Assembly (NCBI GenBank): GCA_965216565.1
Contig: OZ244170.1
Coordinates: 1,440,001-1,504,000, forward strand
Direction of reading: 5' to 3'
Origin: Bythopirellula sp.
Lineage (GTDB): Bacteria > Planctomycetota > Planctomycetia > Pirellulales > Lacipirellulaceae
Length of the DNA: 64,000 nucleotides
The notes under the pieces were generated by a model that worked only from the letters and a program-made list of their open reading frames with translations, searched no databases and was not told the DNA's origin. How positions within the stretch are numbered: the first letter of the stretch is position 1; every line of letters starts with the position of its first letter. Below, in pieces: positions 30,682-54,407 of this stretch. The position numbers and the translations under genes are program-made.

Positions 30682-33600
30682 TTATGCGGCTGCTGATTCT
30701 GGTTCGATATGTTGTTGTAACGACTGATCGCGTTCAGCTTGGTGTGGCAAAGATTTGACGTGCAAATCGCATTGAGGGAAGGCGATTTCAATGTTGTGCT
30801 GTCTGAACAGATCATCGATGTCCAAATGCAGATCATGCCTTAAACGTCTGTACATGATGAGGTCATCGACAAACAGCCTGAGCTCAAAGTTTAAGCTGCT
30901 GTCGCCAAACTCGTTGAAGATGACGATCGGCTCGGGGTTATCAAGTACATTGCAGTTTTCTGCTGCGACTTGGTAGAGGAGCTTTGTAGCCAGTCGAGTA
31001 TCACTGCCGTAAGCGATACCTACGCGGACAATAAGACGCAAGTGAGGATTGGAGAGCGTCCAGTTCACCAAGTTCCCAGTGACGAAATCTTTGTTGGGAA
31101 CAATTAGTTCCTTGTTATCCCAGTCCAAAACGGTTGTCGCTCGAATGCGAATCTTCGTTACGGTACCTGTTATCTCACCAACGGTGACAGTGTCTCCCAC
31201 CCTCGCTGGGCGTTCGAATAGCAGAATGATACCTGACACAAAATTCGCAAAAATCTCCTGGAGACCGAAGCCGAGGCCGACTGTCATTGCAGCCACGAGC
31301 CACTGAACACTATTCCAGCCGATTCCAAGCTGACGCATTCCCAATGCCAGGCCGACCACTGTAATCGTGTAACGCGTGATTGAACTTGCTGCGTAACGCG
31401 CCCCCGCATCGAGAGGCAACTTTTGAAGGACTGTGATCTCCAAGAGCCCAGGTAAATTCCGTCCAGCGAACCAAGTGATTGACAAAATCAGTGCTGACGC
31501 GACTAGATCACCGAGTGTTACAAAAGTCGGTGCGGCGTCTGGATTTATTGGAGTGAGACTACTTGCCCAAAGCTCCACTCGATTAAAGACTCCCAAAGCG
31601 GGCAATACATCACCCCAGACAAACCACATGGACAGCACGAAGGCCGCGCCGACCCCCATGCCAACCAACTTGCGAGCTTGTTGATTAATATCAGCAAGGT
31701 TGAACTGTGGTTCAATTTCCACCGGAGCTGTTTCGGCTGACGTATTTTCCTGTGCTTCCAGCATGGCTTGTCGTTTTTCACGAGCGTGCTGCATCGCGAC
31801 GCGTCGGTAGGCGACCATCAGCCATCGCATAAGCAGCGAACGCAGTGCGAAGCAAGCAAACACGAACAAGCAGGAAACAAAGATCCGGCGAGTTAGCTGC
31901 ATCGCAGTGTAATGGTAGCCAGCAATTGAGGCAGTGATCAAAATAAATACACCCAGGGTCGTGAGTGGGCCGAGTAGTTTTACTAGTCTAGCAAACCAAT
32001 ACCCTTTAGCACTGGCGGCAATTGCTTTGTTAAGTGCTCCGTTCGATCGAAATAGTCGAAAGCAGACGGTTCCAATTACGAAAAGTGAGCTTATCAGGGA
32101 TAACCTTCCGAGCGAGTTGATACTTATCTCGTCGTTGCCAATCTCAACACCGACGGCAATCGCCAGTAGCGGTAGCGCCAATAGTTCTAAGGTACGTGCA
32201 GCTCGACGAATGGCGGCCAAACCTTTAATGTCCCAGCCAAAGTGGTTTGCACCCAAACCGCCTTGGCGAGAGGCGTGCCTGGCCAGATTCAGCATGGCGT
32301 AGGCGGCAGCAAAGAGCATGAGCGCCCAACCAGTGGAAAATGCGAGCGCGCTAGTGCCGCGACTCAATCGCCAGCCCACAAACCCAAAGCAGGTTGGTAT
32401 AGGTAGAGCCATAAACATGGTGGCGAGTGATGCCAACACGGTTGGCCGGAACTTGGTAGCAGTTGGCTTCGCGGCTGCTTCTCCTGTTTCTCGCAGAAGC
32501 GTGCGGGCACGTGAACGCCCCACCACAAGCGTAGTGGCTAACAGCAGGCCAAATCCCCACCAATGGGCACGTCGTTGAATGTCTCGTGATAGTATCATCC
32601 CCAGACTCTTAACTTGTGCTAGGCGGTTAGGAGCGTTACTCCAGAAGTCTTTCGTATGTTGCAGTTCTGGTAGACCAATCGTCGGTGCGCTACGAACCCA
32701 GAGTATTTGTTCGGCTATGAAATCAGAGAGTTCTTCAGTTGTTGAAACGACTTCACTCTCGGCGGCATCAAGTTCTTCAATACGGCTCAGGCTGTCACTA
32801 GCATTGGCGATCAATTCAGCAAGGATTTCCGTGCGTGCTTCGAAAATCCGACGTAATTCCTTAGCTGCAGCGTCGGACAACTCGATCGACTCATCTGCGA
32901 GCTGCTGTTTTGCTTGCTCTACCTGCTCATCACAGTGTAGGCACTCTCGGCGAAGTGATTCCCATTCGTAAACGTCCAATCCTAGTTGCGAAGCTTCGAC
33001 AGGCCGATGACCAAGGCGATCTCGAATTGGTGCGAGAGCCGGAAGCTGATCTTGTTGAGTGCGTAACATCGCCCCAATTGCCGTAGAGTGTTGCCCCGCA
33101 TCCGCACGTTTGGTGACATCGGTCAGACGATTCTTCATCGTTTGTCCTAACTCCTTCGCCTCCGTCAGCCGCGCGGTAAGTTGTTGCAATCGTAACACAA
33201 TTTTCTCGTTTCGATCGGCTAATTGTGCATTAAGAGCTGCAGCAGACTGCACTGCCGGGTGAGCGTTAATTGCAGTCATGCGAGCTGACTGCGCTTGCTT
33301 CTCCGCCTCCTGGCGTTTCGCCTCTGCCACCTGCTCTTTGACCGCTTGATGCTGTGAGACAACAGCTTGCAATTCTCTTTCGGCAGCATCTCTGCGTGCC
33401 AACCAGAGTCGAGAATTGGATTCGTACGTTAGGACTTCTTGTTCAAGCCATTGGTATTCGACCGACAAGTAATCACGGCGAGCCAAGTGATAAAGCTGCT
33501 TTGCTTCCGTTAGTATTGACACGCTCTTTTCGAGAGGTTGTCCGAGTGTGTTTGCCAAGGAATCATACTGCTCTCGATTTTTGGTCAACAGCTCTGGAAG

Positions 33601-34209
33601 GACCTTGCGACGTTCGGCCCGACGTTCAATTTCTGCCGTTACTTTCACCACTTTTTCTTTCGCAAGCGAAAGTTGCTGACCTAACGTTGTCAGGTAGTTG
33701 CGAAGTTGGTCGACTGAGGGTACTGCGGGCAGTTGCTGAATATCAACTGCAAGGCCGACGGGCTGCTGCAGCTTCTCAATTTCTGAACTAGAAAGCTCTA
33801 GTTCTTTCTTGAGAGCCTCAGTAGTTGCAGCTAACTTCTCTGCGTCGGCAAGCTTCGTTGCAGTTTTGTCACAAAATTCATTGGCTTCTGCGCGAGTCTC
33901 CTCGGTGCCTTCCTCGGCAATGTCGCAACGCTTCCGTAAGCGCGCTATCGCCTCAGATGAAACTTGATGCAACTCAACTCCAACGACTTCCCCCGAGGTA
34001 GATTCCGCGGCTAGTGCGGTTTGCGCTGCTACGGAATCCGCTGCTTGCACCTCTGCAATTGCTAGCTGACTACTGAGCGATAAAAGCGAGCAAAGGCTGC
34101 ATAATGCCAGTAGGTATCGATTACTTGTCACCAAAAACACCTTCCTTGGGCCGAGTCGCTGAGGAGACCTCGTAACTCTCATCAAATGCTGCAGTACGCT
34201 AGCAGCCAA
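30682..34209 (-). CDS. mscK: MscK/KefA-like large mechanosensitive channel (copy 1)
   Basis: Signal-like N-terminus, long coiled coil, multi-TM region, MscS core GLGFGLQEIFANFVSGIILLFERP.RVGD...IRIRAT...IAFPQ; start uncertain. Confidence 0.92.
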   Translation of the reverse strand: MAASVLQHLMRVTRSPQRLGPRKVFLVTSNRYLLALCSLCSLLSLSSQLAIAEVQAADSVAAQTALAAESTSGEVVGVELHQVSSEAIARLRKRCDIAEEGTEETRAEANEFCDKTATKLADAEKLAATTEALKKELELSSSEIEKLQQPVGLAVDIQQLPAVPSVDQLRNYLTTLGQQLSLAKEKVVKVTAEIERRAERRKVLPELLTKNREQYDSLANTLGQPLEKSVSILTEAKQLYHLARRDYLSVEYQWLEQEVLTYESNSRLWLARRDAAERELQAVVSQHQAVKEQVAEAKRQEAEKQAQSARMTAINAHPAVQSAAALNAQLADRNEKIVLRLQQLTARLTEAKELGQTMKNRLTDVTKRADAGQHSTAIGAMLRTQQDQLPALAPIRDRLGHRPVEASQLGLDVYEWESLRRECLHCDEQVEQAKQQLADESIELSDAAAKELRRIFEARTEILAELIANASDSLSRIEELDAAESEVVSTTEELSDFIAEQILWVRSAPTIGLPELQHTKDFWSNAPNRLAQVKSLGMILSRDIQRRAHWWGFGLLLATTLVVGRSRARTLLRETGEAAAKPTATKFRPTVLASLATMFMALPIPTCFGFVGWRLSRGTSALAFSTGWALMLFAAAYAMLNLARHASRQGGLGANHFGWDIKGLAAIRRAARTLELLALPLLAIAVGVEIGNDEISINSLGRLSLISSLFVIGTVCFRLFRSNGALNKAIAASAKGYWFARLVKLLGPLTTLGVFILITASIAGYHYTAMQLTRRIFVSCLFVFACFALRSLLMRWLMVAYRRVAMQHAREKRQAMLEAQENTSAETAPVEIEPQFNLADINQQARKLVGMGVGAAFVLSMWFVWGDVLPALGVFNRVELWASSLTPINPDAAPTFVTLGDLVASALILSITWFAGRNLPGLLEITVLQKLPLDAGARYAASSITRYTITVVGLALGMRQLGIGWNSVQWLVAAMTVGLGFGLQEIFANFVSGIILLFERPARVGDTVTVGEITGTVTKIRIRATTVLDWDNKELIVPNKDFVTGNLVNWTLSNPHLRLIVRVGIAYGSDTRLATKLLYQVAAENCNVLDNPEPIVIFNEFGDSSLNFELRLFVDDLIMYRRLRHDLHLDIDDLFRQHNIEIAFPQCDLHVKSLPHQAERDQSLQQHIEPESAAA

Positions 34210-34295
34210 TCACCCTGGTTCCATCCAGGGCAACATGGGAAGATACGGTGAACAGGCCAGGAGGGCTAGAGCAGCTTTGTTCCAGCAGGCTAGCT

Positions 34296-34760: not shown

Positions 34761-34845
34761 TAGTAAAACTCCTAATCAAAAATTCTCGTGTGATATTAGA
34801 TTTCGCTTCTGTATGAAAAAGCAAGCACCTCCAGATTCTGTTAAA

Positions 34846-35687: not shown

Positions 35688-35978
35688 AACATTCTCCAAG
35701 CGAGAAAAACGATTCGAGGAAGAATCGAGAGAGAACCTGAGAGCAGTAACTGCAAGGAAGCAGCCCAGATTGTCAGAGAGAGACCGAACGTTCCGATCAG
35801 CAATCGGAGGCGGTCTTTGTCAGTTCAACTATGATTATATTATGTCGTAACGCAAAGTATTCAAGATGCTTTTTACAGAGATTATCCTTAAGGTAGCTGC
35901 ATGCTATCATGAAATTAGAATGGTTGTAGCAGGACGACACGCTAACCAATAAATTGTCCCTAATTACAAAATTGTTAT

Positions 35979-37160
35979 TTATTCAGGTCGTATCGTTACA
36001 TCATTTTGCAGAGAGTCCGTGATTTGATGTCTAGACGCATTGCTCTGGGAACTGCTCGCTACATCACCATTCGCTGCGGGGCCCGATAGCCATCCACGTC
36101 GCCAGAAGAAACCAATCAAACCCGTAGCCACCGCAACCATCAACGTAAGCGCTAACGGGTAACCAAGCGCCCAGTCCAATTCCGGCATCATTTTGAAGTT
36201 CATTCCGTAGACGCCGGCAATAAAGCTGAGTGGAATGAATATGGTGGCGATAATAGTCAACACTTTCATGACTTCATTCATGCGATTGCTAACCGCTGAA
36301 AGGTAAAACTCGCGTAGGTTGCCGCACATCTCGCGGTAGGTGTCGAGCGAGTCTAATATTTGCACGACGTGGTCGTAGCAATCTCGAAAATAAAGTTGTG
36401 TCTCTTCAGAAACTAGTGAGTGCGAATCACGCATCAGCATCACAAGTTCGTCCCGCAGTGGCCGTATCGCCCGTCGTAACATCATCAGGTCACCACGGAT
36501 TTCGTGAATGTGCTCCATCAGTTGAGGATTGCACTCCGACAAGATGGTTGCATCGAGGTGTTCGAGGCGTTCACCATACTCGTCTACAATTGGAAAATAG
36601 AAATCAACAACGGCGTCGAGTAGGGCGTATACAAGGTAGTCGGAGCCTGAGGTTCGAATGCGACCACGCCCCTTGCGTAGACGCTCTCGCACGGGATCAA
36701 GGCAGTCTCCTTGTCGCTCCTGAAAGGTCAGTACGAAGTTCTTGCCGACGAACATGCTAATTTGCTCCGTCTCCATGATGTCGTTCCACGACATCATTCG
36801 GGCGACGATGAAAAGATGGTCGCCATACTCCTCGACCTTCGCACGTTGATGAACGTTCACTACATCCTCCAAGGCCAGAGTGTGTAGGTCGAATATCTCA
36901 CCGAGCTTCTCAACTTTTCTTGCATCGCCTAATCCAACTACGTCAACCCAAGTGACACCTGAAGAGGCAACGTAATGCCGTAGCTGCTCGAGTTCGTGGA
37001 CTTCCTCTTCCTTGATTATGGCCCGATCGTAGTGCATGATGCGCACCACGGGCTGCGGAGCACCGGGGTGGACTACCACTGAACCTGGAGAACTTCCTGG
37101 AGTCGTCATTCGCTGAACACGGACACTTCGCCGATGTCTGCGTTTACGTTTTTTTACCAT
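35979..37160 (-). CDS. corA: Magnesium/cobalt transporter CorA
   Basis: LALEDV...QRAKVEEY, MNEVMKVLTIIATIFIPLSFIAGVYGMNF (GMN motif). Confidence 0.96.
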   Translation of the reverse strand: MVKKRKRRHRRSVRVQRMTTPGSSPGSVVVHPGAPQPVVRIMHYDRAIIKEEEVHELEQLRHYVASSGVTWVDVVGLGDARKVEKLGEIFDLHTLALEDVVNVHQRAKVEEYGDHLFIVARMMSWNDIMETEQISMFVGKNFVLTFQERQGDCLDPVRERLRKGRGRIRTSGSDYLVYALLDAVVDFYFPIVDEYGERLEHLDATILSECNPQLMEHIHEIRGDLMMLRRAIRPLRDELVMLMRDSHSLVSEETQLYFRDCYDHVVQILDSLDTYREMCGNLREFYLSAVSNRMNEVMKVLTIIATIFIPLSFIAGVYGMNFKMMPELDWALGYPLALTLMVAVATGLIGFFWRRGWLSGPAANGDVASSSQSNASRHQITDSLQNDVTIRPE

Positions 37161-37439
37161 GTGTTAAGTCCATGTGCGACGCGGGAATGTCAGTTCGTTT
37201 CGGATTGTCGGCTGCCAGCGGTATACTAGTCCAGTAAGTACTAATTCTAGTGACTGACCGTCGGATATCCGCGTTTGTTACATTCTAGTTTCTTGACTTA
37301 GTAATTACACCCAAGGGCAAGTTCGCTGCAGCTTCTGCCAGTTAGATGGTGACCGTAGCGTTATAGCTGGGCGTAATCCTAACCAATTACCTTGAATAGA
37401 TTCACGATGCTGAGATCATTCGACTCTGCTATTCCGTTA

Positions 37440-38483
37440 TTACAGCGTACACATGTCGACGTTATCGAAGTTACGCCCATAGTAGTGCATGTATTCGACC
37501 TTCTTTTCTATAGCTTCGATCACCAGGGTCGAAAAGTTGACCTTCTCGAACTGCTGGGCGCTACCTAACCCACCAGGGCTAAATACGTTGATTTCCATTA
37601 ACTTGTTGCCGACGATGTCGAGACCAACTAGGAACATGCCATCTTGTACGAGCTTGGGGCGGACAATCTCTGCAATTTGCAGGTGTGTTGCGGTGATTTC
37701 CGCAGCCGCTTTCGAGCCCCCTGCATGAACGTTGCTACGCATGTCGCCGCCACTCCGCACGCGACGGAAGGCGGCATATTTTTTGCCGATTCGTAGGGGG
37801 CGGCCGTTCATGACAAACAGTCGCATGTCGCCTTCTTCGGCTGCAGGTAAATACTCTTGAGCAATTACGAACCCATCCCGGCTGACCGCGTCGATCATCT
37901 GATTCAAGTTGGGAATATCTGCCTGGCGAATCAGAAACACGCTAGCACCTCCAGAGCCTTGAAGCGGTTTGACCACGATGGTTCCTAGCTCTTGTGCAAA
38001 ATGTTTGATTTCATCACGATCGCGAGTGATTAATGTTTGAGGACGCACGGTTTCTGGAAACAATTGAAAGTACATCTTGCTAGATGCTTTAGCTAAGCCG
38101 TTTGGGTCACTGAGGATGATCACGCCATGCCGCATGGCGACACGGGCGAATTCTGTTGCGGCAGTGCTGGCCCAGGGACGACTGAGATAGTCATCGGAGG
38201 GCACGTTACGTAGAACTAGGACGTCCAATTCATCCGCCGTGATTCGGCGTTTGACTGCCTTTTTGCTTTGCAAATCTGCAGTAAAACTGTCGGAGCTACC
38301 GTACTTTTCTTTGGGAACTGATGTTGCTCGCGCGCGAACCATGTCGTCGGGATCGTAAGCCAAGTCTCCAACACCCATCACCCAAACTTCATGGCCGCGA
38401 TTCACTGCCGCCTGCCCGAGACGCATCGTCGTGAATTTCTTTTCCTCGGTTTGAACGTCGTTGACGATGAATCCTATTCGCAT
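37440..38483 (-). CDS. Glutathione synthetase-like ATP-grasp ligase (copy 2)
   Basis: KPLQGSGG, QEYLP, GDMRL, RSNVHAGG, VGLDIVG..LMEINVFSPG. Confidence 0.88.
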   Translation of the reverse strand: MRIGFIVNDVQTEEKKFTTMRLGQAAVNRGHEVWVMGVGDLAYDPDDMVRARATSVPKEKYGSSDSFTADLQSKKAVKRRITADELDVLVLRNVPSDDYLSRPWASTAATEFARVAMRHGVIILSDPNGLAKASSKMYFQLFPETVRPQTLITRDRDEIKHFAQELGTIVVKPLQGSGGASVFLIRQADIPNLNQMIDAVSRDGFVIAQEYLPAAEEGDMRLFVMNGRPLRIGKKYAAFRRVRSGGDMRSNVHAGGSKAAAEITATHLQIAEIVRPKLVQDGMFLVGLDIVGNKLMEINVFSPGGLGSAQQFEKVNFSTLVIEAIEKKVEYMHYYGRNFDNVDMCTL

Positions 38484-38537
38484 GATGTTTTCCTTTATCT
38501 CTAATACCATTTAATCAAGTGATGCGTGCGATAATGG

Positions 38538-39581
38538 CTACAGAGTACACATGTCGACGTTGTCAAAGTTGCGGCCATAGAACTCCATGTAGCCAGCCTT
38601 CCGTTCCAGAGCACCGATCACATATTTGTTGAAGTTGATTTTGGTGAATTTTTGAGCGCTCCCGAGCCCACCAGGACTGAAGACGTTGATCTCCATGAGC
38701 TTGTCTCCCACGATATCCAGACCGACGAGAAACATGCCGTCCTGCACCAATTTCGGCCGTACTATTTCGGCGATTCTGAGATCTTTTTCGGTCACTTCAG
38801 CCGCAGCAAGTTTGCCGCCCGCATGAATGTTGCTACGCATGTCCCCCCCCATGCGAACTCTACGGAATGCGGCATACTTTCCTTTTACTTGGAGAGGGCG
38901 GCCGTTCATGACAAACAACCGCATGTCACCCTCTTCAGCGGCGGGTAGGTATTCCTGGCAGATCACATAGCCATCGCGACTCACAGCGTCGATCATCTGG
39001 TTCAGGTTGGGTATGTCCGACTCTTGTATCAGAAAAACCCCCGTCCCCCCCGAACCTTGGAGAGGTTTCAGGACGCAGCGTCCCTCCGACTTAGCAAAAT
39101 CTCGAATCTCTTCACGATCGCGAGTAATCAACGTTCTCGGACGCACTTCTTCAGGAAACAATTGGAAGTACATCTTCGTCGAGGCTTTTGCCAGACCGTT
39201 GGGGTCATTAACTACGATCACGCCATTGCGCATCGCCACTCGTCCAAATTCAGCGGCTGCAGTTGCAGCCCATGGCCGTTTGAGATAATCGTCTGATGGC
39301 ACGTTGCGGAGCATCAAAACATCGAGTTCGTCGACCGTGACTCGCTTTTTTACACTCTTGGGGCCTTGCAGGTCTCGAAGAAAAGTCTCTTGCGACTTGT
39401 ATTTTGTCTGCGAGACAGTACGTGCTCTCGCTCGTACGAGTTCGTCCGGATCGTAGGCGATGTCACCTACGCCAAAGACGTAGGCCTCGTGCCCTTGGTT
39501 GACCGCTTCGCAGGCGAGCCGCGTCGTGGTGAATCCAGCTTCTTCAGTGGCAATATCGTTGACGATAAATCCTATTTTCAT
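38538..39581 (-). CDS. Glutathione synthetase-like ATP-grasp ligase (copy 1)
   Basis: Same motifs; tandem paralogue with identical C-terminus YGRNFDNVDMCTL. Confidence 0.88.
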   Translation of the reverse strand: MKIGFIVNDIATEEAGFTTTRLACEAVNQGHEAYVFGVGDIAYDPDELVRARARTVSQTKYKSQETFLRDLQGPKSVKKRVTVDELDVLMLRNVPSDDYLKRPWAATAAAEFGRVAMRNGVIVVNDPNGLAKASTKMYFQLFPEEVRPRTLITRDREEIRDFAKSEGRCVLKPLQGSGGTGVFLIQESDIPNLNQMIDAVSRDGYVICQEYLPAAEEGDMRLFVMNGRPLQVKGKYAAFRRVRMGGDMRSNIHAGGKLAAAEVTEKDLRIAEIVRPKLVQDGMFLVGLDIVGDKLMEINVFSPGGLGSAQKFTKINFNKYVIGALERKAGYMEFYGRNFDNVDMCTL

Positions 39582-39625
39582 CCAAGCGTTCCTTTGACTG
39601 AGTTTTTCGTATGAGTGATTCTGCG

Positions 39626-42600
39626 TTAGTTCGATGGAGCTGTAGTTTCTCGTCCGTCGGCATTTGTCTGCTGAGGCTGGAACCAAAACTCACGTGAGGC
39701 ACTATTTGCGGCATGAATATGCAAATCCCGTTGTGGGAAAGCGATGGTAATGCCCGCGGCAGCAAACTCGCGTGCAATTGCCGCATTGAGTTCGTGCAGC
39801 CCCTTGAGTCGATCTCCGATGCGTGCGTGATAGACACGCAGAGAAAAAATCAGCGAGCTGTCGCCAAATTGCTGCAAGAGGGCAACTGGCTTGGGTGAAT
39901 TAAGAACTCGCGGATTTTCACTCGCAACTTTAAGTAGCAAGTCACGAACCTGATCAGGGTCGGAGCCATACGCGACTCCAACCTCAATCACACGCCGGTT
40001 GGTCTTGTTCTGCAGAGTCCAGTTCAGCAAGCGACCTGTGGCGAATTCCTTGTTCGGCACCACCAGATCCTTGCGATCCCAGTCGGTAATTGTCGTCGCC
40101 CGCATGCGAATCGATTGCACAACGCCAGTCGTATCACCAATCGTAATCACATCTCCGACGCGCATTGGACGCTCAAAGAGAATGATCAAGCCAGAAATGA
40201 AATTGGCAAAAATTTCCTGCAAGCCGAAACCTAAACCGAGCGACAGAGCGGCGGCCATCCATTGCACTTTGCCCCAACCGATTCCTAAGCACCCGGCTGC
40301 GAAGATGGCAGCAGCAATCCAGAGCGTATAGCGAGCAATGGTCGTGATCGAATTCCGTAGCGAACTATCGAGAGCTAATTGGTCGAGCACCGGCAGCTCG
40401 AACAATCCATCCAGATAACGCGAAGCCATTACAGTGCTGATCACCACAAACATCGCCAGCAACAGGTCACCCAATGTCACAGGTACTAAGGTGGGAACTC
40501 TCACATCAGGCGCGGGCGATTCAGTTCCAAGCGGTGCAGAGGGTTGGCTAGTTATAACTTCTGTTTCCCACAGTGTCGTATTGCTGACGGCATGGAGCGC
40601 AGGAAAGACGTCGCTCCAAATCCACCAGCCTCCCAGCAGCAGCACTAGCACCAGTAGCGAGGTCACTAGAGACTGTATCTTGTCCTCTGGTTTATCCAAC
40701 TGAACAAACCAACCATCTCCCGTGTCAGGTAGCGGAAAAGTTCCCTCGCTGCTCTCCTTTTCACGATTCGACAACGCAGTGGCAGCTCGTTGACGAGCAA
40801 CAGTTTGAATAGCTCGTCGGCGAGCGATCAAACGACTACCATGTAGCAACAACGACCCGACGACGAACAGGCAGGCCATCAGCAGAAATGTTGAGCGTAC
40901 TTCCTGCCCCAAACGTTCCGCCGAGTAGGTGTACCCCACGATCGCAAGAACGCCGAGCGTTAGGTGTGCCCCCACTCCGACGAGGTAGAGAGGCCAACGC
41001 AATCGATGTAGCAGCGTCTTTTCGCTTGGCTTGGCCGCACGATAGAGTATGCCCGAGTTCGGCCTCAACAATTGCTCGCTAAAGAGTGCGACTACCAAGA
41101 CATTCACGACGTAACAAAGTCTGCCCAGTGAGTCCTGCAACCGCACATCGTCCTGGGCATTCAGTGTCGTCATGATAAGAATAAGTGGAAGAACGACGAC
41201 CGCTAACGGAAACAGCGCTCTCCGCATAGCTGCGATACCCGGGGCAGACCAGCCAAGATGTCGGCGGGCAAAGCCTTTACGTCTGCAGAGCCGAATGAGC
41301 ACTGCCAGAGGTAATAAGCATATCGCGACGTTGATCAGACCAATCCCGACTGCTCGTTCATATCCCTCAGAATTTCCAGCGTTGACTAATCGCTGACCTG
41401 CGAAGGCTAAAAACAGCGGCAATGGCACGGCACACAGAGCGACTCGCAGTAGATCACGTAGAATTCGCCAATATCTCGATGGCCTCTGTGCAGACGATTG
41501 AGGCAAACTATGACGAATCGTCATTTGCCAGCCTAGTGTGCGTGCAGAAAGCAACGATATAGCAACCAAACCAAAAGGCAAGGGGTGCTTCGCATAGTCA
41601 GCAGAGATCGTATTCCAAGTTTGTCGGAGAAATCCACCTTGAAAGAAATCTCGTATTCCGTCAAAGGAGGCAGCAACAGAGCTTGACGACATGCTTTCGG
41701 TGCTGCGTACCCAAAGAACGTTTTCGTCAATGAAGTTGGTCAGGCTGCTGATGTCCTGAGCAAGTTGGCGTTGGGCTTCATCAAGGGCTAGTAATTGCTC
41801 AAGATAGACTTTGTAATCCTCTAGGAGCAAATCAACGTAACGTCGCTCCGCGTTTAACAAACGCTCCCAAGTTTTACGAGGATTCTCGCTCGCCTGCTTT
41901 TCGTCTGGCAACTTTCCCTGCGTAATTAGCCGGTTCATCTCATTCTCGACATTGGCTAGGTCAGAGCGTCGATCCTGGAGTTCGAGCAGGGCCAGTTGCG
42001 CCGTTTTCAGTGTTTGCTGACGGAGGTCAATTTCACGCTCATGCTGGTCGATGCGTGGAAGCTCAGACTTTTGCTTACGCATAAGCAAGCCGATGGTCCC
42101 TGTAAGTCCAACTGCCTCGACTTTGCGGCGAATCCTACCTTGTTGTTGATTGAGCTGGGTCGCTGTTGAATTGATCGCTGCCAGTGCATCGTTCGTAGTG
42201 TCAATCTGCTGACGTAATTCTTGGCGACGCTCCACCAATGCCAGATTAGTGCTCGCAAGGTCTGCAAACTGTGGTAAACCGGTGTTTCTATTAGTTTCTT
42301 CTTTGGCCTCAATCAGATGCAGGGCAACTTCGGTTGTTCGTTTGCGATTCAACTCACCCTGTAGCGTCTTGGCGATTTTGTGCAATCGGGCAACGCGGTT
42401 TGCCGCTACGTCTCGCTGCAATGGCAACAAGTCGATCGTTGCCTGATAGGCCTTTAGTTCGATGGCACCCACATCAATTGCCGACTGAGTGGCTCGAATG
42501 CTAGCCTCCAATTGAACTCGTTTTGCAGCCGCCAATTCAGGTGGATCGTTGGTCTTGTCTATTAGCTTGAGGGTTTGTTCGTCCTGCTGTAGCTTCTCAC

Positions 42601-43117
42601 GCAAACTAATGCGTTGCTGAGGAATCTCCTTGCGCCTAGTCGCGCGGTATTTTGGTTCTTTATCAAGGCGTCGCAGGACTTTCTTTGCTTCCGAGAGTTC
42701 GGCTTCCGCTTCAATCAGCTTTTCTTGCAGAATAGAGATAGACACTTCAGAGCCAACTACAGGTAGAGCCGCTTGTGCCAGCTGGCTGAGTTCGTACCTA
42801 GTGCGCCCGACATCTTCTGGGGCAGTTCGCTGCGATGATGCATACTGCTCTGACAAAACAGCTAGCTTGTCTGCCTGCCGCAGATCAGCAATTGCCAATT
42901 CGTAAAGCGTCAGAATCTGCTTTTTTGTCTCTTCAGGTAGAGCTGAGGTAGCTTTTGTAGCTTCTATCTGCGACTGAAGTTTCTCAACAGAGATCGTGTC
43001 TGCCAGCAGAGTTTGCGATGAGCAAAGGCCAATTGCCAAAAACACGGAAGTGGCAAAGCTCAATAATGAGAAGATTGTAGAATACTGGAACGATCTGTTT
43101 TGAAAGATGCTCTTCAT
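39626..43117 (-). CDS. mscK: MscK/KefA-like large mechanosensitive channel (copy 2)
   Basis: Signal peptide, coiled coil, TM domain, GLGFGLQEIFANFISGLIILFERPMRVGD, IAFPQRDLH. Confidence 0.92.
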   Translation of the reverse strand: MKSIFQNRSFQYSTIFSLLSFATSVFLAIGLCSSQTLLADTISVEKLQSQIEATKATSALPEETKKQILTLYELAIADLRQADKLAVLSEQYASSQRTAPEDVGRTRYELSQLAQAALPVVGSEVSISILQEKLIEAEAELSEAKKVLRRLDKEPKYRATRRKEIPQQRISLREKLQQDEQTLKLIDKTNDPPELAAAKRVQLEASIRATQSAIDVGAIELKAYQATIDLLPLQRDVAANRVARLHKIAKTLQGELNRKRTTEVALHLIEAKEETNRNTGLPQFADLASTNLALVERRQELRQQIDTTNDALAAINSTATQLNQQQGRIRRKVEAVGLTGTIGLLMRKQKSELPRIDQHEREIDLRQQTLKTAQLALLELQDRRSDLANVENEMNRLITQGKLPDEKQASENPRKTWERLLNAERRYVDLLLEDYKVYLEQLLALDEAQRQLAQDISSLTNFIDENVLWVRSTESMSSSSVAASFDGIRDFFQGGFLRQTWNTISADYAKHPLPFGLVAISLLSARTLGWQMTIRHSLPQSSAQRPSRYWRILRDLLRVALCAVPLPLFLAFAGQRLVNAGNSEGYERAVGIGLINVAICLLPLAVLIRLCRRKGFARRHLGWSAPGIAAMRRALFPLAVVVLPLILIMTTLNAQDDVRLQDSLGRLCYVVNVLVVALFSEQLLRPNSGILYRAAKPSEKTLLHRLRWPLYLVGVGAHLTLGVLAIVGYTYSAERLGQEVRSTFLLMACLFVVGSLLLHGSRLIARRRAIQTVARQRAATALSNREKESSEGTFPLPDTGDGWFVQLDKPEDKIQSLVTSLLVLVLLLGGWWIWSDVFPALHAVSNTTLWETEVITSQPSAPLGTESPAPDVRVPTLVPVTLGDLLLAMFVVISTVMASRYLDGLFELPVLDQLALDSSLRNSITTIARYTLWIAAAIFAAGCLGIGWGKVQWMAAALSLGLGFGLQEIFANFISGLIILFERPMRVGDVITIGDTTGVVQSIRMRATTITDWDRKDLVVPNKEFATGRLLNWTLQNKTNRRVIEVGVAYGSDPDQVRDLLLKVASENPRVLNSPKPVALLQQFGDSSLIFSLRVYHARIGDRLKGLHELNAAIAREFAAAGITIAFPQRDLHIHAANSASREFWFQPQQTNADGRETTAPSN

Positions 43118-43121
43118 CGGA

Positions 43122-45050
43122 TTACCTCACTTCCTTGCGAGATGCCAATTCGGCCAACGAACAAGAGCTTTCCCGCAACACATTGAGGCGTTTCACGGAG
43201 TCACTGGTGAGTAAATGCCTAGGCACAAGCGGTGGAGCATGCAGCACCTTGCGATATTGCAGTTCTCTGACGATTGGCAAATGCTCGTGGGCAATCTTGC
43301 CCACAAACAGCACATTGATGTCTCCATTCTGCTGAAGGTGCTGCAAGACGGTTTGCAAACCTCGCAAATAGACGGCGTCCTTGGTTAGGCCTCCTCCACG
43401 GTAGACGCGCATCACGATGTTGTAAGCTCTGCGTTTCGTGAAGCCGAATTTATTGACGAGTGCACGAAAGGCTTCTACAAAAGTCGCGTGTTCAGTCCTT
43501 AGTCGTACCGCGACAACGCGGCCAGCGAGTTGACGTAAACGAGCATCGCTCAGTCCGCCCACCAAGTACTCGGACAGTACAGCAATGCCTTCCTGAAGTT
43601 CTTCGTAACCCGATAAACCAGCATGCAGTAGCTGAAACGGCTGTGCCTGAGCGTTATAGTACGTCAGTACATGCGTACCCACTTCGTGGGCTAAGAGGGC
43701 TTGGACGCGTGACTGAGATATATCAAGATCCGAGTTGATCAGTAGCGTCCCCCGAGAGACCATCACGCCACTAACTTCTTCGGTCACTTCAGCCCGGCCT
43801 GCAAACTCGGGCCAAGTATTGTGATAGTGACGGAATTCATCGCGTGCCAGTGCTGCAAACTCTTCTGCAGTTACTGAGCCTTTTTTTCTTTCAGAGGCAT
43901 CCCTAGCCACTAAGGAAAGAAGACTCAGTGCCTCACCGTAGAGGTCGTCCTTGACGCCGCCAAATAGCTGCAAGCTCTGGTACAAGAACCTCGGTGTGTC
44001 GCGGTCTTGTAGCATTGTCAGCTGTAGTTCTAGCTCGGCTTGTTTTTCATAAAAGAGTCGCTGTAGTGCAGGATCCTCTACACGCTCGATTGGAATCTTG
44101 AACAGCTCGCGTTTGAGAGCAATGGGGTCCACCGTTTGTGGTCGATAGTGAAATTCGGGGGCTTGCTCAAACTTACTCCGGTGGAATTCATGCCAAGCCT
44201 GCACCGTGTTGACCGGAGTCAGCTGCAGTAGGTAATCGAATTGGTCACTAATTCCCGCCAGACGACGATCAGCGTTCCAGACGGATTTGACAACTGCTTT
44301 GCGACCAAGTGCGTGGAAGTGGGGTGGGCGGTGTGATGTACAGGTACGGGCAAATTCATAAAAAGCTTGGCGCAAGGCCAAACTCACGCTCCGTCTTAAG
44401 GAACGAGCCAATAGGGGATAGTCTTCTTCAGAGCCCGCTGCACGATATACGGGAGGTACTGTCAGCCCCAGGAAGGAGCAATGGAGTTCGCTTGCCCTTT
44501 TTATCGACAACAGCGGCGCAAATTGCGTTGGCCAGGTCTTGCCGTCACGTTGTACCTCGACCTTTACCCCTTGTTTCAGCACCTTGATACGGCGCAAACG
44601 CTTGGCGAGTGCTTCCACTGCTCGGCTGATGGATGCTTGTGAGGATGCATGAATGGCGAATTTCGGTAACACGTCGGGTACTGCCGGATCATTCGCATCC
44701 CCTCCCTCGGGAGCCGCCCATACTTCGACGATTAGCAGTGCACCGAACTCTCTCGCAAGCGCTTCTGTAACACAGTCAACAACAAGAGATATTTCCTTTG
44801 GCGACGCTTCTGCCTCTGTGACGATAAGGTAGGATGCTTCGGCTTTGACGAGGTGCTCAGTCCCCGAATCGGAAGCATCGAGCGGCTGACGATAGATGCA
44901 CAGAAATGGTAACTGCCGATCAATGTGCAGGCGCCCAATTCCGGGCAGCGTACGTCTTACTCGTTGATTCTGCGCAAGGCGTTGAGAGACCACATCGAGG
45001 ATGGATCTAAGGAGTTTTGATCTCTTGATGGGTTCCTTGCTGATGGGCAA
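43122..45050 (-). CDS. DUF1704 / QEGLA-motif (MATCAP-like) zinc metallopeptidase
   Basis: HEVGTH (HExxxH), LQEGIA, RVYRGGGLTKDAVYLRG; N-terminal GRLHIDRQLPFLCIYR. Confidence 0.88.
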   Translation of the reverse strand: MPISKEPIKRSKLLRSILDVVSQRLAQNQRVRRTLPGIGRLHIDRQLPFLCIYRQPLDASDSGTEHLVKAEASYLIVTEAEASPKEISLVVDCVTEALAREFGALLIVEVWAAPEGGDANDPAVPDVLPKFAIHASSQASISRAVEALAKRLRRIKVLKQGVKVEVQRDGKTWPTQFAPLLSIKRASELHCSFLGLTVPPVYRAAGSEEDYPLLARSLRRSVSLALRQAFYEFARTCTSHRPPHFHALGRKAVVKSVWNADRRLAGISDQFDYLLQLTPVNTVQAWHEFHRSKFEQAPEFHYRPQTVDPIALKRELFKIPIERVEDPALQRLFYEKQAELELQLTMLQDRDTPRFLYQSLQLFGGVKDDLYGEALSLLSLVARDASERKKGSVTAEEFAALARDEFRHYHNTWPEFAGRAEVTEEVSGVMVSRGTLLINSDLDISQSRVQALLAHEVGTHVLTYYNAQAQPFQLLHAGLSGYEELQEGIAVLSEYLVGGLSDARLRQLAGRVVAVRLRTEHATFVEAFRALVNKFGFTKRRAYNIVMRVYRGGGLTKDAVYLRGLQTVLQHLQQNGDINVLFVGKIAHEHLPIVRELQYRKVLHAPPLVPRHLLTSDSVKRLNVLRESSCSLAELASRKEVR

Positions 45051-45108
45051 AACGATTCCTTTTGTAATGTAGTAAATCAGCAGCCTCTCTCATCGCATTT
45101 TCACGCCC

Positions 45109-45930
45109 CTAGTGAGCAATGAGTTGAAGCTTGTTTACCTCTTCTAAAATCCCAGGTACCGTCGACGCTAAAGCCTTCTGTACTGCTTTCAATAAATGTC
45201 GTTCGGGTTTGCCGCTCCATTCGCACATAAAGAACTTTTTGAATTCAATTGAAATCACACACGCTGCCTCTGGAAAACACTGGTGTGTCCATTCGGCATG
45301 GTGACCACCCATGAATTTTACATTTTCGCGCACATCAAGTCGCCCAGTTGGGAAATCATAGTTGGATAGTTCATACATGAAGCGATAGAGTAATGGACGA
45401 AACCGTGGCTCTGATCGCATCGTGCCCGTACCAATGTTGACTTGTGGGTTCTCAGCCGGATCTGCGAGTGGCCCATTGGGACCGTTCCGACGATGGTTGT
45501 ACGTATGCAGGTCGAAGACAACAAAGGTTCCATGCTCCTCGGCTAACTCCTGGTAGAGCATACCGAGCGCCTCGTAAAACCGATCGTACTGCTTAAGGGA
45601 ACGCTGCGCGATTTCTTCTGGAAGCTCTTCTTTCCAAATTTGTAATCCCCACGCATCTTCTGGTTTTCGATAGACGGCTCGTTCACGAGGACGATTGAGA
45701 TCGACCTCAAACCGAGAGCGCAAGCCAACCACACGTGTTGGCGCGACTTCCGTCCAATCGCCCGTGTAGGGATCTTCTTCACGCCGTCGATCCTCTTTGC
45801 TGATCGCCATCTGCTCATGCACTTCGCTACGTACCTCGTGGCCATGGTGAATAGCGGTCGCAACGATTGGCCCTGCTCCACGATGAAGCTCCCAAATTTG
45901 ATCGGTCACCTGCGTTCTCTGCGTATGCAA
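45109..45930 (-). CDS. N-formylglutamate amidohydrolase family protein
   Basis: TAIHHGH, REEDPYT, SRFEVDLNR, FDLHTY, ENVKFMGG, ISIEFKK. Confidence 0.9.
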   Translation of the reverse strand: MHTQRTQVTDQIWELHRGAGPIVATAIHHGHEVRSEVHEQMAISKEDRRREEDPYTGDWTEVAPTRVVGLRSRFEVDLNRPRERAVYRKPEDAWGLQIWKEELPEEIAQRSLKQYDRFYEALGMLYQELAEEHGTFVVFDLHTYNHRRNGPNGPLADPAENPQVNIGTGTMRSEPRFRPLLYRFMYELSNYDFPTGRLDVRENVKFMGGHHAEWTHQCFPEAACVISIEFKKFFMCEWSGKPERHLLKAVQKALASTVPGILEEVNKLQLIAH

Positions 45931-45998
45931 TGCCTGTTGAAACGAGCACTAGGTTCCTGGCCGCTCAGTGCCAAGTGGCTCTACAACGTTGTTCTAAG

Positions 45999-46013
45999 GC
46001 AAAGGGTGTGCCG
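45999..46013 (-). promoter_or_regulatory. Sigma-54 -24/-12 promoter for the amidohydrolase operon
   Basis: CGGCAC-ACCCT-TTGC on the minus strand, 69 bp upstream of ATG 45930. Confidence 0.7.
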
Positions 46014-46274
46014 GTGACTTTTGATGAGGATCACGGCTCTTATGGTGCAAGCACACTGGGCCGCTCTGACGCTATGCGTTAAGGCGATATCGATTGGAAA
46101 CAGCTAGATTGTGAAGGCCAGACACATGATGTCGCCACAAGTGCCTTGGTTAATAAGTGCCCACGGTGTCCAATAGCTACCCAGGAAGAATCGAGTTTTG
46201 GAGCTGCCCAGGCAAGGTCCGGTTAAGCGTCTACGCTTTTTTCGTATTTCTAAAAGTGTTTTTTTGTTGTCGCT

Positions 46275-46289
46275 TGGCACATTGTTTGC
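46275..46289 (+). promoter_or_regulatory. Sigma-54 -24/-12 promoter
   Basis: TGGCAC-ATTGT-TTGC, preceded by a T-rich tract. Confidence 0.8.
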
Positions 46290-46471
46290 CTTTGTTACGT
46301 TAGGCAGTGATTAGGGCACTGTCTGTCCGTCACGGTCGCGCGGGTTTCTTCTAGGGTGGGACGCACAATCGAGGAGAACACCTGAGCCTATTGGTGGCTT
46401 GGCTTGCGCGACCGTGACGAATCGTTGTTCGCCCACTTTCACTGAAGGAGAGCTATAAGCAAGAAAGAAAT

Positions 46472-46843
46472 ATGTCGACCTACCTACAAATCACGGCCAG
46501 CAACATCACTCAAAAAGCAAAGTTCGAAGACGGCACCCGGCTGCCAATCGAACTGTGGGCAATCTGTGATGAGGGCGAAGAGACTTCATGTTTGGCTGGA
46601 CTGGTGCTCCACCCCAAGACAAAAAAGTTGGTGCGAGCCGATCATTTGCCCGGTTTTCTGTCGTATCACAGTGATCGGCTTGGGTCGGGATTTCATCGGT
46701 TCAGTCGACTGCCCAGTCGGCGAAACGTGGAAAGGCAGCAACCAAAGAACTCCGGTGCTAAATCTGGCAAGGCCGAACGACCACAGGTTAGACAGATTGG
46801 TCAGAAATTAGCCAAGAAAACGTTCCTCTCGCAGTCGGCCTAG
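46472..46843 (+). CDS. Hypothetical protein
   Basis: 123 aa downstream of a sigma-54 promoter; purine-rich leader; basic disordered C-terminus. Confidence 0.6.
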   Translation: MSTYLQITASNITQKAKFEDGTRLPIELWAICDEGEETSCLAGLVLHPKTKKLVRADHLPGFLSYHSDRLGSGFHRFSRLPSRRNVERQQPKNSGAKSGKAERPQVRQIGQKLAKKTFLSQSA

Positions 46844-47052
46844 CTTGCGAAAGTAATTGAGAAGCTTACAAAGTGCGACTTCTCATTCCGGCACACAAAC
46901 TGCTCATCATTGATTGCCGTGAGGGTAAAAGTTGCCATGCAGGCTTGGTCTGGGCACTAGGGGTTGGTTGACATTCACGGGATGTTGGCTGACCAGCCCT
47001 CGCGGTACTTTTTGGCATCACGCCGCTTACCCACTTGGAGAGGAGACATGCT

Positions 47053-47274
47053 ATGCTAGCACTTGCGCGGAGGCCTGGAGAATCCATCCACATCGGTGAC
47101 AACATTACCGTGCAAATCGTATCCGTTCGAGGCCAGCGGGTGAAGTTAGCGATTGATGCCCCGCGTGAAATAAGCATCGACCGACACGAAATCTGGCTCC
47201 GAAAATTCGCCGGAACGGTGGTGCTGCCGATAGAGTCAACGAGCGTCGCACCGACGCACTTGAAGCCCCGATGA
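47053..47274 (+). CDS. csrA: Carbon storage regulator CsrA (copy 1)
   Basis: MLALARRPGESIHIGDNITVQIVSVRGQRVKLAIDAPREISIDRHEI; GAGGAG RBS. Confidence 0.92.
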   Translation: MLALARRPGESIHIGDNITVQIVSVRGQRVKLAIDAPREISIDRHEIWLRKFAGTVVLPIESTSVAPTHLKPR

Positions 47275-47347
47275 GTCGCAACGAAATTGCGATAGTTGTG
47301 ATGGATAATTCAAAGAATCAACTGAAGTCGCGTTAGAACTTCTCAAT

Positions 47348-49792
47348 ATGCATCTACCCATCGCAGATTTCCCGATTACTACGGAGCGAGACTTCAACTG
47401 GTCTGCCCAGCGTGCTCGTCTGCTTGGCACGCTGGCAAGCCTTCGCCCTAAGGCCCGCAATGCGTTCTCAAAATCAATTGCCGAAGCAGCTCGAGCGATC
47501 ATTCCCAAGCCTTTTCGAGGCAACATCCAGTTCGCCATTGGAGCTAGCCAGCAACAACAGTTCATCGAAGCCACCATCATTGGGCAAGCAACGGACGCTG
47601 GACAGCCAAAAGTAGACAAGCAGGCTCTCGAAAAACTGGTTGACGAAGTGCTAGTCGATTCGAGCAACGCAGATGGCAGCACGATTACGCTGCGAAAACG
47701 ACTCCCTGACAACTGCCCCTTACTAGGCCCGGAAGACGTTACGGAGTGGGGTACTATGCTGGCAACCCGTACCACCGAAGGGGCGTTAGTGCAGGCCCAA
47801 CACCGATTGCGCGAGGTCCTCGCCACATCTAGTTCACCGAGTACAAACACCAGAGATGCACAGGTCCATGAACTGCTGGCATTAGTGGCGAGCACCACGG
47901 ACAATTCAGTCGTCGTGATGGATGCGATCGGGCAGGTGGAATGGGTGAATGATAGCTTTATGCGTATGACCGGATATGAGTTAAACGAAATTCAAGGGCA
48001 ACTGTTTTTTGAGTTATTGATTGGTCCAGAAACCGATCAAAGTTCTGCCAGGGATTTACAGTCGGCGATCAAGCTAGGGCATGGGGTGAGCAAGGATGTG
48101 CTTCGCTATCGTAAAGATGGTAAAACTTATTGGGAATTGTTGAGCCTGACTCCCGTGTTTGATAAGAGTGGTTCAGCCAGTCGATGGGTTTCGATTGGGA
48201 CAGATATTTCCGCCAGGCACGCAGCGGAAGAGGCTCTCGCACAAGCCAAAGCGACCGCCGAAGCGGCCAGCAATGCCAAAAGCGACTTCTTGGCTAATAT
48301 GAGCCACGAAATACGTACGCCCATGAATGCTGTGTTGGGCATGACCGACTTAGCTTTGGGAACAAAGCTCACATCGGAACAGAACGAATATCTTTCTATC
48401 GCCAAAGAATCAGCTCAAGCGTTGATGAGTTTACTGAACGATATTCTTGACCTCTCAAAAATAGAAGCGGGCAAACTCGCGGTTGATCCGGTCCCGTTCG
48501 ATCTGTCCCGGTTAGTCGAAAACACACTCAAACCTTTCGCCAAACAAGCCATCAGCAAAGGCATTCAGTTTCAACATGCCATTTTGGCTGACACGCCCAC
48601 TCACCTTATTGGAGACGCAACTCGAGTCCGGCAGATTCTCATCAATCTGGTTAGCAATGCGGTGAAATTCACGAGTCTGGGGAGCATCGACATCTGTGTG
48701 GAATCACAATGGGAATCTGAAGAAGATGTTTCGCTACATCTTTCCGTCAGCGATACCGGGATTGGCATGCCCAAAGAGACATTGCAGCGGATTTTTGACG
48801 CGTTTACTCAAGCGGATAGCTCCATCACGCGAGAGTATGGCGGTACGGGGCTCGGCTTGACAATCTCCGCTCGACTTGTTGAGCTCATGCGGGGGCGTAT
48901 TTGGGTGCAAAGCCACGAGGGAAATGGTTCGATGTTCCACGTCTCGTTGCCGTTTCAAAAGACAGATGAGCACAATGTAAGATCAACTGCGGGCTCCAAC
49001 GGAATAGTTTCATATCCAGAAGCCAGCCAGCCCTGTCGAGCACTCAACATACTCGTAGCCGATGACAACCAAGCGAATCGTGCCCTGGCCAAAAAGATAC
49101 TCGAAAAGCGCGGACATCAAGTCGCTGTCGTCACCAATGGCAGCGAGGCCTTGGATTACTATCAAGCCCATAATCTGGATGCAGCAATTCTCGATATCCA
49201 AATGCCAGAGCTTGACGGCTTCTCTGTCACAGCCGCCATCCGCCGTGAGGAGTCTACTAAGCAAACTCATTTACCTTTAATCGCCATGACCGCTCATGCC
49301 ATGCCAGGTGATCGGGAGCGTTGTCTCCGTGCTGGCTTAGATGCTTATCTCTCCAAACCCATCAACGCCCGCGAACTTTACACGCTGGTTGAAAGCTTGG
49401 GGCAGACACAGAGGCACACGCAGGTGATCACTCAGGCAGAGACTCTCGTGGAGTCGTCCACGCATCCCTTCGCTGCTGCCTTAGCCCGCTTAGAGGGAGA
49501 TGAAGAACTGCTTCGCGAGCAGATGCAGTTCTTCCTTGATGAAAGTCCAGATTTGATGGACCGAGTGCTGGCTGCGCTGGATGAAGAAAATCAAGAGCAG
49601 GTACGTATCGCCGCCCATCGCCTCAAAGGATTAGCGGGTACCGTGGATGGGGGTGAGTTATGTATGATTGCCAACCGCATTGAGCAGTCAAGCGCAGCGG
49701 GCTCACTGGATGAAGTCACGGCCGTCATCGACGAACTTGCCTCAGCGCTGACGCGACTTATAGACCATGTCAGCGACTATGTGTCGTCATGA
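47348..49792 (+). CDS. Hybrid sensor histidine kinase (RsbT-like - PAS - HisKA - HATPase - REC - HPt)
   Basis: FLANMSHEIRTPMN, NLVSNAVKFT, DTGIG, GGTGLGL, ILVADD...LDIQMP...SKP, AHRLKG. Confidence 0.95.
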   Translation: MHLPIADFPITTERDFNWSAQRARLLGTLASLRPKARNAFSKSIAEAARAIIPKPFRGNIQFAIGASQQQQFIEATIIGQATDAGQPKVDKQALEKLVDEVLVDSSNADGSTITLRKRLPDNCPLLGPEDVTEWGTMLATRTTEGALVQAQHRLREVLATSSSPSTNTRDAQVHELLALVASTTDNSVVVMDAIGQVEWVNDSFMRMTGYELNEIQGQLFFELLIGPETDQSSARDLQSAIKLGHGVSKDVLRYRKDGKTYWELLSLTPVFDKSGSASRWVSIGTDISARHAAEEALAQAKATAEAASNAKSDFLANMSHEIRTPMNAVLGMTDLALGTKLTSEQNEYLSIAKESAQALMSLLNDILDLSKIEAGKLAVDPVPFDLSRLVENTLKPFAKQAISKGIQFQHAILADTPTHLIGDATRVRQILINLVSNAVKFTSLGSIDICVESQWESEEDVSLHLSVSDTGIGMPKETLQRIFDAFTQADSSITREYGGTGLGLTISARLVELMRGRIWVQSHEGNGSMFHVSLPFQKTDEHNVRSTAGSNGIVSYPEASQPCRALNILVADDNQANRALAKKILEKRGHQVAVVTNGSEALDYYQAHNLDAAILDIQMPELDGFSVTAAIRREESTKQTHLPLIAMTAHAMPGDRERCLRAGLDAYLSKPINARELYTLVESLGQTQRHTQVITQAETLVESSTHPFAAALARLEGDEELLREQMQFFLDESPDLMDRVLAALDEENQEQVRIAAHRLKGLAGTVDGGELCMIANRIEQSSAAGSLDEVTAVIDELASALTRLIDHVSDYVSS

Positions 49793-51472: not shown

Positions 51473-51479
51473 TCAAGGG

Positions 51480-54317: not shown

Positions 54318-54407
54318 AGCGTGGATTGGGGTTTGTGGAGGAGATGGCCAACCCACAGTTTCTCCGTTCAGGTGCTGCCGAGCAAGCGGCATCTTTTCTT
54401 TCGGGCT

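Follow-up and report, generated by a model that had tools for sequence, protein, structure and literature searches.

A predicted sigma-54 operon in Bythopirellula sp. carrying a widespread module of MATCAP-type peptidase, FGase-family amidohydrolase and PRK12458-type ligase, with a possible role in building and trimming glutamate chains

We analysed a 64,000-nucleotide stretch of Bythopirellula sp. DNA (contig OZ244170.1, positions 1,440,001 to 1,504,000 of the forward strand; called the window below) in which five open reading frames (ORFs), all on the minus strand at 37440..46013, form a predicted operon encoding two hydrolase-family proteins, a mechanosensitive channel and two ATP-grasp ligases. 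Three of these protein types, an N-formylglutamate amidohydrolase family member (FGase), a MATCAP-type peptidase and a PRK12458-type ligase, make up a core module that is widespread in bacteria. From the promoter downward, in window coordinates, the features are:

45999..46013, minus strand: sigma-54 (-24/-12) promoter-like site CGGCACACCCTTTGC, predicted, 69 bp 5' of the FGase start
45109..45930, minus strand: FGase-family zinc amidohydrolase, 273 amino acids (aa), predicted active (PF05013, E 8e-19)
43122..45050, minus strand: pseudo-FGase plus MATCAP-type (DUF1704/QEGLA) zinc carboxypeptidase, 642 aa (PF08014, E 4e-89; TIGR02421, 342 bits, cut-off 338.65)
44337..45035, minus strand: N-terminal domain of this peptidase, about residues 6-238, FGase fold lacking the metal ligands, by profile and fold match
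39626..43117, minus strand: MscK/MscM-type large mechanosensitive channel, 1163 aa, between the peptidase and ligase 1; a local addition
38538..39581, minus strand: PRK12458-type ATP-grasp ligase 1, 347 aa, catalytic residues intact
37440..38483 (347 aa, the start with a ribosome site) or 37440..38510 (356 aa), minus strand: PRK12458-type ATP-grasp ligase 2, from a second old paralogue clade

The gaps between the genes, calculated from the coordinates, are 58, 4, 44 and 54 bp. The promoter, the gene order and the 4-bp gap before the channel gene are as described in the original prediction, which was made from the sequence alone, and its HExxxH, QEGIA, LRNVPSDD and EINVFSPG motifs are all present. 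The promoter site has the GG-N10-GC form, and rpoN is found in the genome. Such -24/-12 sites number five in the window, where 0.42 would be expected; the others lie at 46275-46289 (+), 55268-55282 (-), 55303-55317 (+) and 61562-61576 (-), and include two divergent pairs, one of which involves the site of the operon itself. At 52860-54392 lies a gene for an NtrC-type activator. Scans for sigma-70 promoters and terminators gave matches at or below chance. The region 30000-47500 is contiguous, free of joints and indels, in two public assemblies that derive from a single sample, possibly the one from which this DNA came; misassembly is therefore rejected. The closest relatives are planctomycete records. 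The five-gene arrangement with its predicted sigma-54 site is real.

The distribution of the module was examined in three sets of loci (73, 20 and 80; 173 in all, not fully non-redundant). The first set consists of 73 genome loci drawn from the best 80 of at least 554 matches to ligase 1; the peptidase is present at 62 and the FGase at 57, so that the earlier suggestion of a three-gene core in other bacteria is borne out. Among 80 metagenome loci found with the peptidase alignment, many of them on short contigs, 72 have the ligase and 58 the FGase. In a search of 120 genomes of the window's own family, 46 have the peptidase and 45 the PRK12458-type ligase, with both in 44 of the 47 that have either; three further ligase matches were canonical GshB and were set aside. 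The peptidase and ligase genes overlap by 4 nucleotides at 70 of 148 measured junctions.

The MscK-type channel has a different distribution. It contains four MscS/MscK Pfam domains and scores 523 bits on the MscK equivalog PRK11281, below the cut-off of 991; it has no close orthologue in the family, its best relatives being 33-34% identical. No other member of the 173-locus census, screened with a fixed set of query families, has an MscS-family gene inside the module. The channel was correctly picked out as an unusual insertion, but with this position unique to the window we reject MscK as a core component. At one other locus (L165:5863-7101) an mgtE gene lies between peptidase and ligase, in the slot that MscK occupies here.

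The peptidase is a two-domain protein. Its C-terminal domain carries HEVGTH at residues 455-460 and QEG at 486-488 (within QEGIA), and the HExxxH and QEG motifs, together with R504, R511, R548, R551, K557 and K585, are invariant in 67 sequences. The domain resembles human MATCAP in sequence (E 0.002) and in fold (Foldseek to 7z5g, E 1e-8), and it has the PF08014 match, HExxxH, QEG and fold of the MATCAP/DUF1704/QEGLA family. On these comparisons, the predicted catalytic domain is a true homologue of eukaryotic MATCAP.

The N-terminal domain had not been spotted in the original prediction, and its identification is an addition to it. No Pfam or NCBIfam model matches residues 1-260, and the domain lacks a model of its own, with 851 clusters matching at E 0.001. 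An hhalign comparison of 67 N-terminal domains with 57 module FGases gave a probability of 83.6 and an E-value of 8e-6 over 174 columns; the profile score was 46.7, whereas the controls, which comprised the ligase profile, a reversed alignment, the C-terminal portion of the peptidase and 30 block-shuffled versions, reached at most 20.5. In a search of 48,161 chains with the AlphaFold model of the domain (pLDDT 91.8), the best match was the FGase 2q7s (Z 12.9, rmsd 3.9, 186 aligned), followed by 2odf (Z 11.5) and carboxypeptidases (up to 11.3). Foldseek was less clear, placing purine nucleoside phosphorylases at the top by E-value and 2q7s at rank 15, so that we base the fold assignment on hhalign and VIA-align. 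Neither pairwise BLAST nor PDB sequence searches picked up the homology, and the ESM Atlas gave no usable match for the domain.

The stand-alone FGase has the fold of the HutG family (2q7s, 2odf) and retains its His/Glu/His metal motif. Residues H28, E51 and H142, which from knowledge of the family we take to be the metal ligands, are invariant in all 57 module FGases. In the N-terminal domain of the peptidase, W111 (65 of 67 sequences) stands opposite H142, and the region of H28 and E51 does not align; the domain should therefore be inactive, and appears to be a catalytically dead copy of the FGase. In Photobacterium sp. GJ3, an FGase with intact motifs occupies the position of this domain, fused to the peptidase in one chain, and there is no separate FGase in the 13-kb locus. 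Sinorhizobium meliloti has the split arrangement, with separate FGase and peptidase, as in the window. The simplest history would start from a fusion of FGase and MATCAP; the FGase part would then have been duplicated, after which one copy kept its activity and the other decayed.

Both ligases pass the PRK12458 model (462 and 449 bits, cut-off 408) and have intact ATP-grasp residues; the ATP, metal and catalytic residues are invariant in the alignment. They carry Pfam GSH-S domains but, in keeping with the earlier view that they differ from canonical GshB, fail both GshB equivalogs (199-219 bits on TIGR01380 and PRK05246, cut-offs 272 and 299). They also fail the RimK models TIGR00768 (71-72 bits against 143) and PRK10446 (38-41 against 331), and the TTL family is not among their Pfam matches at E 0.01. 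E. coli GshB is 31% identical and has the same two-domain architecture, and the counterparts of its R86, K125, K160, D208, R210, R225, D273, E281 and N283 are kept. In contrast, the TSPTC..E motif of GshB is FSPGG..S in the module ligases and RGN is RSN: T288 is replaced by G304 in 63 of 63 ligases and E292 by S308 in 58 of 63. R249-S-N and SPG follow RimK. The module ligases have a conserved extra C-terminal helix, ending (A/C)TL; this tail, Y..Y.RNF.NV.M.TL (38538-38590 and 37440-37490), is strongly conserved and is not found in GshB or RimK, and 160 of the 221 tails have ATL or CTL as their last residues. By the tests run, the module belongs to PRK12458, PF08014 and PF05013 and appears not to belong to GshB, RimK, TTL or HutG.

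The two ligases are 75% identical. In a quick tree of 138 rows they fall in separate clades, both with other planctomycetes (support 89-91 and 99), so that a recent duplication is rejected. Nor is the presence of two ligases unusual, as had been supposed: 32 of the 73 genome loci have two or three, from old clades. A third clade (343 aa), whose usual slot is between the peptidase and ligase 1, is missing from the window, where MscK fills the slot. Two isolated relatives were seen elsewhere: a lone PRK12458-like ligase on an Ensifer plasmid (L191:7001-8047), with peptidase and FGase absent nearby, and a short QEGLA protein without a ligase, beside betIBA and ast genes, in Pseudoalteromonas (L195).

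The best reading of the module, to which we assign a probability of roughly 45%, is that it builds and trims glutamate chains in the manner of RimK and RimB and so buffers osmotic or ionic shifts. In an ATP-dependent reaction, the PRK12458 ligases would join an amino acid, most likely glutamate, to an acidic acceptor at its carboxylate, giving oligo- or poly-glutamate-type chains. The MATCAP-type carboxypeptidase would remove residues from the C-terminal end, the dead FGase domain may provide a binding or docking site, and the active FGase would cut the last, N-acyl-type bond, freeing the monomer. Glutamate would in this way alternate between a free form, which is osmotically active, and a bound form as salt or ion levels shift. 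The channel would not be required for this chemistry; in the window, where MscK appears to have been placed under the module's predicted sigma-54 promoter, venting and sequestering are probably co-expressed.

Several published systems resemble this scheme. The human and Tetrahymena TMCPs are deglutamylases (PMC10499314), which supports the trimming role. RimK and RimB make and cut poly-alpha-glutamate, depleting the glutamate pool (PMC11957791), and the RimB-like Rlo proteases, which act on polyglutamate, are needed under hypo-osmotic stress (PMC12239564). RimK/RimB and the module both pair an ATP-grasp ligase with a co-encoded peptidase, and a trio form of RimK/RimB adds a zinc deacylase. The families are different, however: the module ligase is GshB-derived, its eraser is a MATCAP-type metallocarboxypeptidase where RimB is a retropepsin, and its deacylase is of the FGase type. 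The likeness to eukaryotic tubulin editing is narrower. MATCAP/TMCP1-2 (KIAA0895L, KIAA0895) share a homologous catalytic domain (HExxxH and EG) with the peptidase, and their pairing with TTL/TTLL follows a similar write-and-erase logic, but the module adds the N-terminal pseudo-FGase and its ligases are not TTL. The write-and-erase idea of the original prediction survives as a pairing of building and trimming; the tubulin code itself is best regarded as an analogy, in which only MATCAP is homologous.

Expression data from other species bear on this reading. In Photobacterium damselae at 1% against 3% NaCl, RS17020 ("glutathione synthase", 1029 bp) is up 38.4-fold and RS17025 (QEGLA, 1983 bp, overlapping RS17020) 27.5-fold (PMC10308900); both genes are assigned to the module by synteny and length to Photobacterium sp. 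GJ3, not by sequence. The order HdfR, DUF413, 1029-bp ligase and QEGLA protein of about 660 aa agrees between the two, as do the lengths, and the GJ3 ligase scores 480 on PRK12458. In the same comparison rimK is up 52-fold, co-induced with the module genes, and an MscS-family gene 5.5-fold (PMC10308900). Induction at low salt fits the sequestering of a solute better than its manufacture. S. meliloti 1021 has the full module on pSymB as SMb21584-21586, the ligase being gshB2. There, SMb21583, SMb21584 and SMb21585 are up in an RpoE2 comparison (log fold change 2.9, 1.5 and 0.7), and the ligase gene is missing from the RpoE2 list (PMC6180224, PMC3616915). In Vibrio vulnificus, a clade-specific COG3930 gene lies next to one annotated as "glutathione synthetase" (PMC3091676).

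A number of points weigh against glutamate-chain building and trimming. Glutamate as the added residue is taken from relatives, and the ligases match GshB (E 2e-39) more closely than RimK (E 6e-10). The substrate-side role of GshB T288 and E292 is assumed; the open literature yielded no paper that lists the substrate contacts of GshB. The Photobacterium sp. GJ3 ligase, on which the P. damselae assignment depends, is only 30% identical to ligase 1. The P. damselae dataset has 1,808 changed genes with osmotic and ionic effects mixed, and a Mg transporter is up 5.3-fold in it (PMC10308900). In S. meliloti, the RpoE2 induction of FGase and peptidase is a general-stress signal and not a low-salt one. 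Of 128 modules, 11 have a strict sigma-54 site in front of them, where about 1.6 would be expected, and this promoter type is thus a minority feature. The excess of ion-related neighbours described below, itself a point in favour, was obtained with query families some of which came from these loci, with a single genome as baseline and with taxa that are related. Finally, the genome has a separate RimB-RimK-deacylase trio, so that the module probably has a different acceptor or product.

This trio is an operon for a RimB-like protease, a RimK that is extended at its C-terminus and a deacylase-like protein (L003:6732-9677, at about 3.94 Mb in the genome), and it follows a sigma-54 activator gene; the same trio lies beside the module at another locus (L046). 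It shows the same three-role design assembled from other families.

Ion-related genes also surround the operon in the window, where two further features are relevant:

35979..37160, minus strand: CorA Mg2+ transporter, 354 bits (cut-off 201), 279 bp 3' of ligase 2; a recurrent module neighbour
30682..34209, minus strand: second MscK-type channel, 29-31% identical to the first; neighbourhood, outside the core

The census loci are likewise rich in ion-related and mechanosensitive genes: one or more for MscS-family, CorA, MgtE, CNNM, CCC, CPA2 or ClC proteins occur at 34 of 73, 10 of 20 and 20 of 80, where random stretches of the window's own genome would give 2.2, 0.8 and 1.2, a large excess. 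MscS-family neighbours are found at 13 and CorA at 12 of the 73 genome loci. In the window, the genes at 55876-58476 and 59580-61154, in a sigma-54-rich region, encode MgtE, a membrane protein of the TerC/Alx type and a copy of GroEL. Between CorA and the second MscK, at 34296-35699 (-), are AdoMet-decarboxylase-like, SET-domain and hemerythrin-like genes; they occur at 0 of 73 loci and are rejected as module parts. A PP2C phosphatase and a Ser/Thr kinase with C-terminal zinc ribbons are encoded at 50648-52808 (-), and a kinase about 53% identical is found directly 3' of the ligase in several family genomes (L091, L092, L094, L095, L097 and L098); it is possible that the pair regulates the module or is its target. 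Diadenylate cyclase-like genes near some modules (L005, L039, L103, L109 and L157) make a link to cyclic di-AMP and K+ possible.

The alternative that survives best, though we consider it unlikely, is reversible C-terminal tagging of a specific protein, such as a channel or transporter, with the ligases lengthening the protein's tail, MATCAP trimming the tag and the dead FGase recognizing the target; functionally this would be the nearest counterpart of the tubulin cycle. It draws on the MATCAP homology in sequence and fold, on the tagging of RpsF by RimK (PMC11957791, PMC12239564), and on the ion transporters that recur as neighbours, CNNM neighbours ending in D or E in 9 of 21 rough C-terminal calls. 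The loci themselves speak against it, having no constant neighbour and no conserved small ORF among 1,343 flanking short ORFs; no conserved co-encoded target was found among these, and a co-encoded precursor peptide is rejected on the same count. Neither the two MscK tails nor the RpsF-like protein of the window's genome has a terminal glutamate, and a tubulin/FtsZ protein was not found in the genome with PF00091, for which the control search succeeded in 13 of 14. An active deacylase is more easily explained by a small N-acylated acceptor.

A small acceptor is the premise of the next alternative, in which an N-acyl dipeptide solute resembling N-acetylglutaminylglutamine amide (NAGGN) or N-acetylaspartylglutamate (NAAG) is made, recycled and released through the co-encoded channel. 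A predicted active N-acyl amidohydrolase is present, the loss of presumed free-amino-binding residues in the ligases would suit an N-blocked acceptor, and MscS-family genes are among the neighbours. The NAGGN operon (asnO-ngg-peptidase) likewise combines a non-ribosomal peptide bond with a peptidase and has an osmotic tie (PMC8070244). However, the GNAT and amidotransferase of that operon are not in the module, and no acyltransferase or amidotransferase is recurrent at the census loci; induction was at low, not high, salt in the one dataset (PMC10308900), and MscK is inside the module only in the window. We think this scheme improbable. Of the peptide-osmolyte cycling that was originally proposed, the link to ions and osmotic state has outside support, but synthesis of an osmolyte fits less well than sequestering.

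Synthesis by the ligases of glutathione, or of a related gamma-glutamyl thiol, from a YbdK-made precursor, with the hydrolases degrading the product, is very improbable. The GSH-S domains and the public name suggest such a role, and the "glutathione synthetase" label of PRK12458/gshB2, found in many genomes, is taken at face value in published papers (PMC3462692; PMC10308900); the Photobacterium ligase is narrowly above one GshB cut-off (284.6 against 272). The window's genome (94% complete) has a YbdK-type ligase, beside an M20 amidohydrolase gene, as its sole gamma-Glu-Cys-ligase-like type, and 88 of the 120 family genomes have one, with or without the module. Nonetheless, no ybdK is near any of the 173 census loci. 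As originally predicted, no gamma-glutamylcysteine ligase or hut gene was found among the scanned window proteins (part of the window's ORFs), and searching the genome for gshA, the check that had been proposed, found neither PF04262 nor the alpha type (TIGR01436). PF04262 is absent from all 120 family genomes, and none of the 45 with a PRK12458 ligase has it or an alpha-type gshA above cut-off. The three family genomes that do have an alpha-type gshA each carry canonical GshB (adjacent in two) and have no peptidase match. The distribution of the module ligase tracks the peptidase and, unlike that of GshB, not gshA.

Two species in which the module and a gshB gene occur together argue in the same direction. 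S. meliloti 2011 presumably carries the module of strain 1021, given the common origin of the two strains. A gshB (SMc00419) mutant of strain 2011 had no glutathione by high-performance liquid chromatography (PMC7063052), a result that low expression of the module could also explain. In P. damselae, a 948-bp gshB of canonical length is down 1.6-fold at 1% NaCl, the opposite direction to the module ligase (PMC10308900). The ligases are probably not glutathione synthetases. On the other side, a second, lone PRK12458 ligase of one genus (and of genome G052) lies within about 3 kb of ybdK, convergent to it, at 6 of 9 second-copy loci (L179-L183 and L190); at four of these six, ybdK has an M20 amidohydrolase gene next to it. 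A role of the FGase in histidine catabolism, within a loose assembly of genes, is rejected as extremely improbable: the Pfam name and one aromatic ammonia-lyase in the genome suggest it, but the FGase scores 21.7 bits on the HutG model TIGR02017 (cut-off 278.75) and is tightly linked or fused to the peptidase, there is no hut context, the lyase adjoins an acyl-CoA ligase/carrier-domain gene, and a genome-wide search found no urocanase.

We found no description of the module in the open literature. The study of amidoligases by Iyer et al. (2009) reportedly describes ATP-grasp/peptidase neighbourhoods and may include this module.

The dead FGase domain of the peptidase is a clear example of enzyme duplication followed by catalytic loss. 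If the reading of the module as a builder and trimmer of glutamate chains is correct, it would provide a first function for the bacterial relatives of MATCAP and a glutamate-sequestering arm in the low-salt response. The presence of the same module on S. meliloti pSymB makes the question directly testable. A broader proposal, which we regard as somewhat doubtful, is that the PRK12458 ligases, the pseudo-FGase-MATCAP and the FGase give bacteria of many phyla a further write/erase system for polyglutamate that does not depend on RimK/RimB, in which glutamate is polymerized or used as a tag at osmotic downshift, keeping a counter-ion that mechanosensitive channels would vent. Were this true, the eraser would show from which bacterial activity eukaryotic MATCAP, the tubulin deglutamylase/detyrosinase, is likely to have started.

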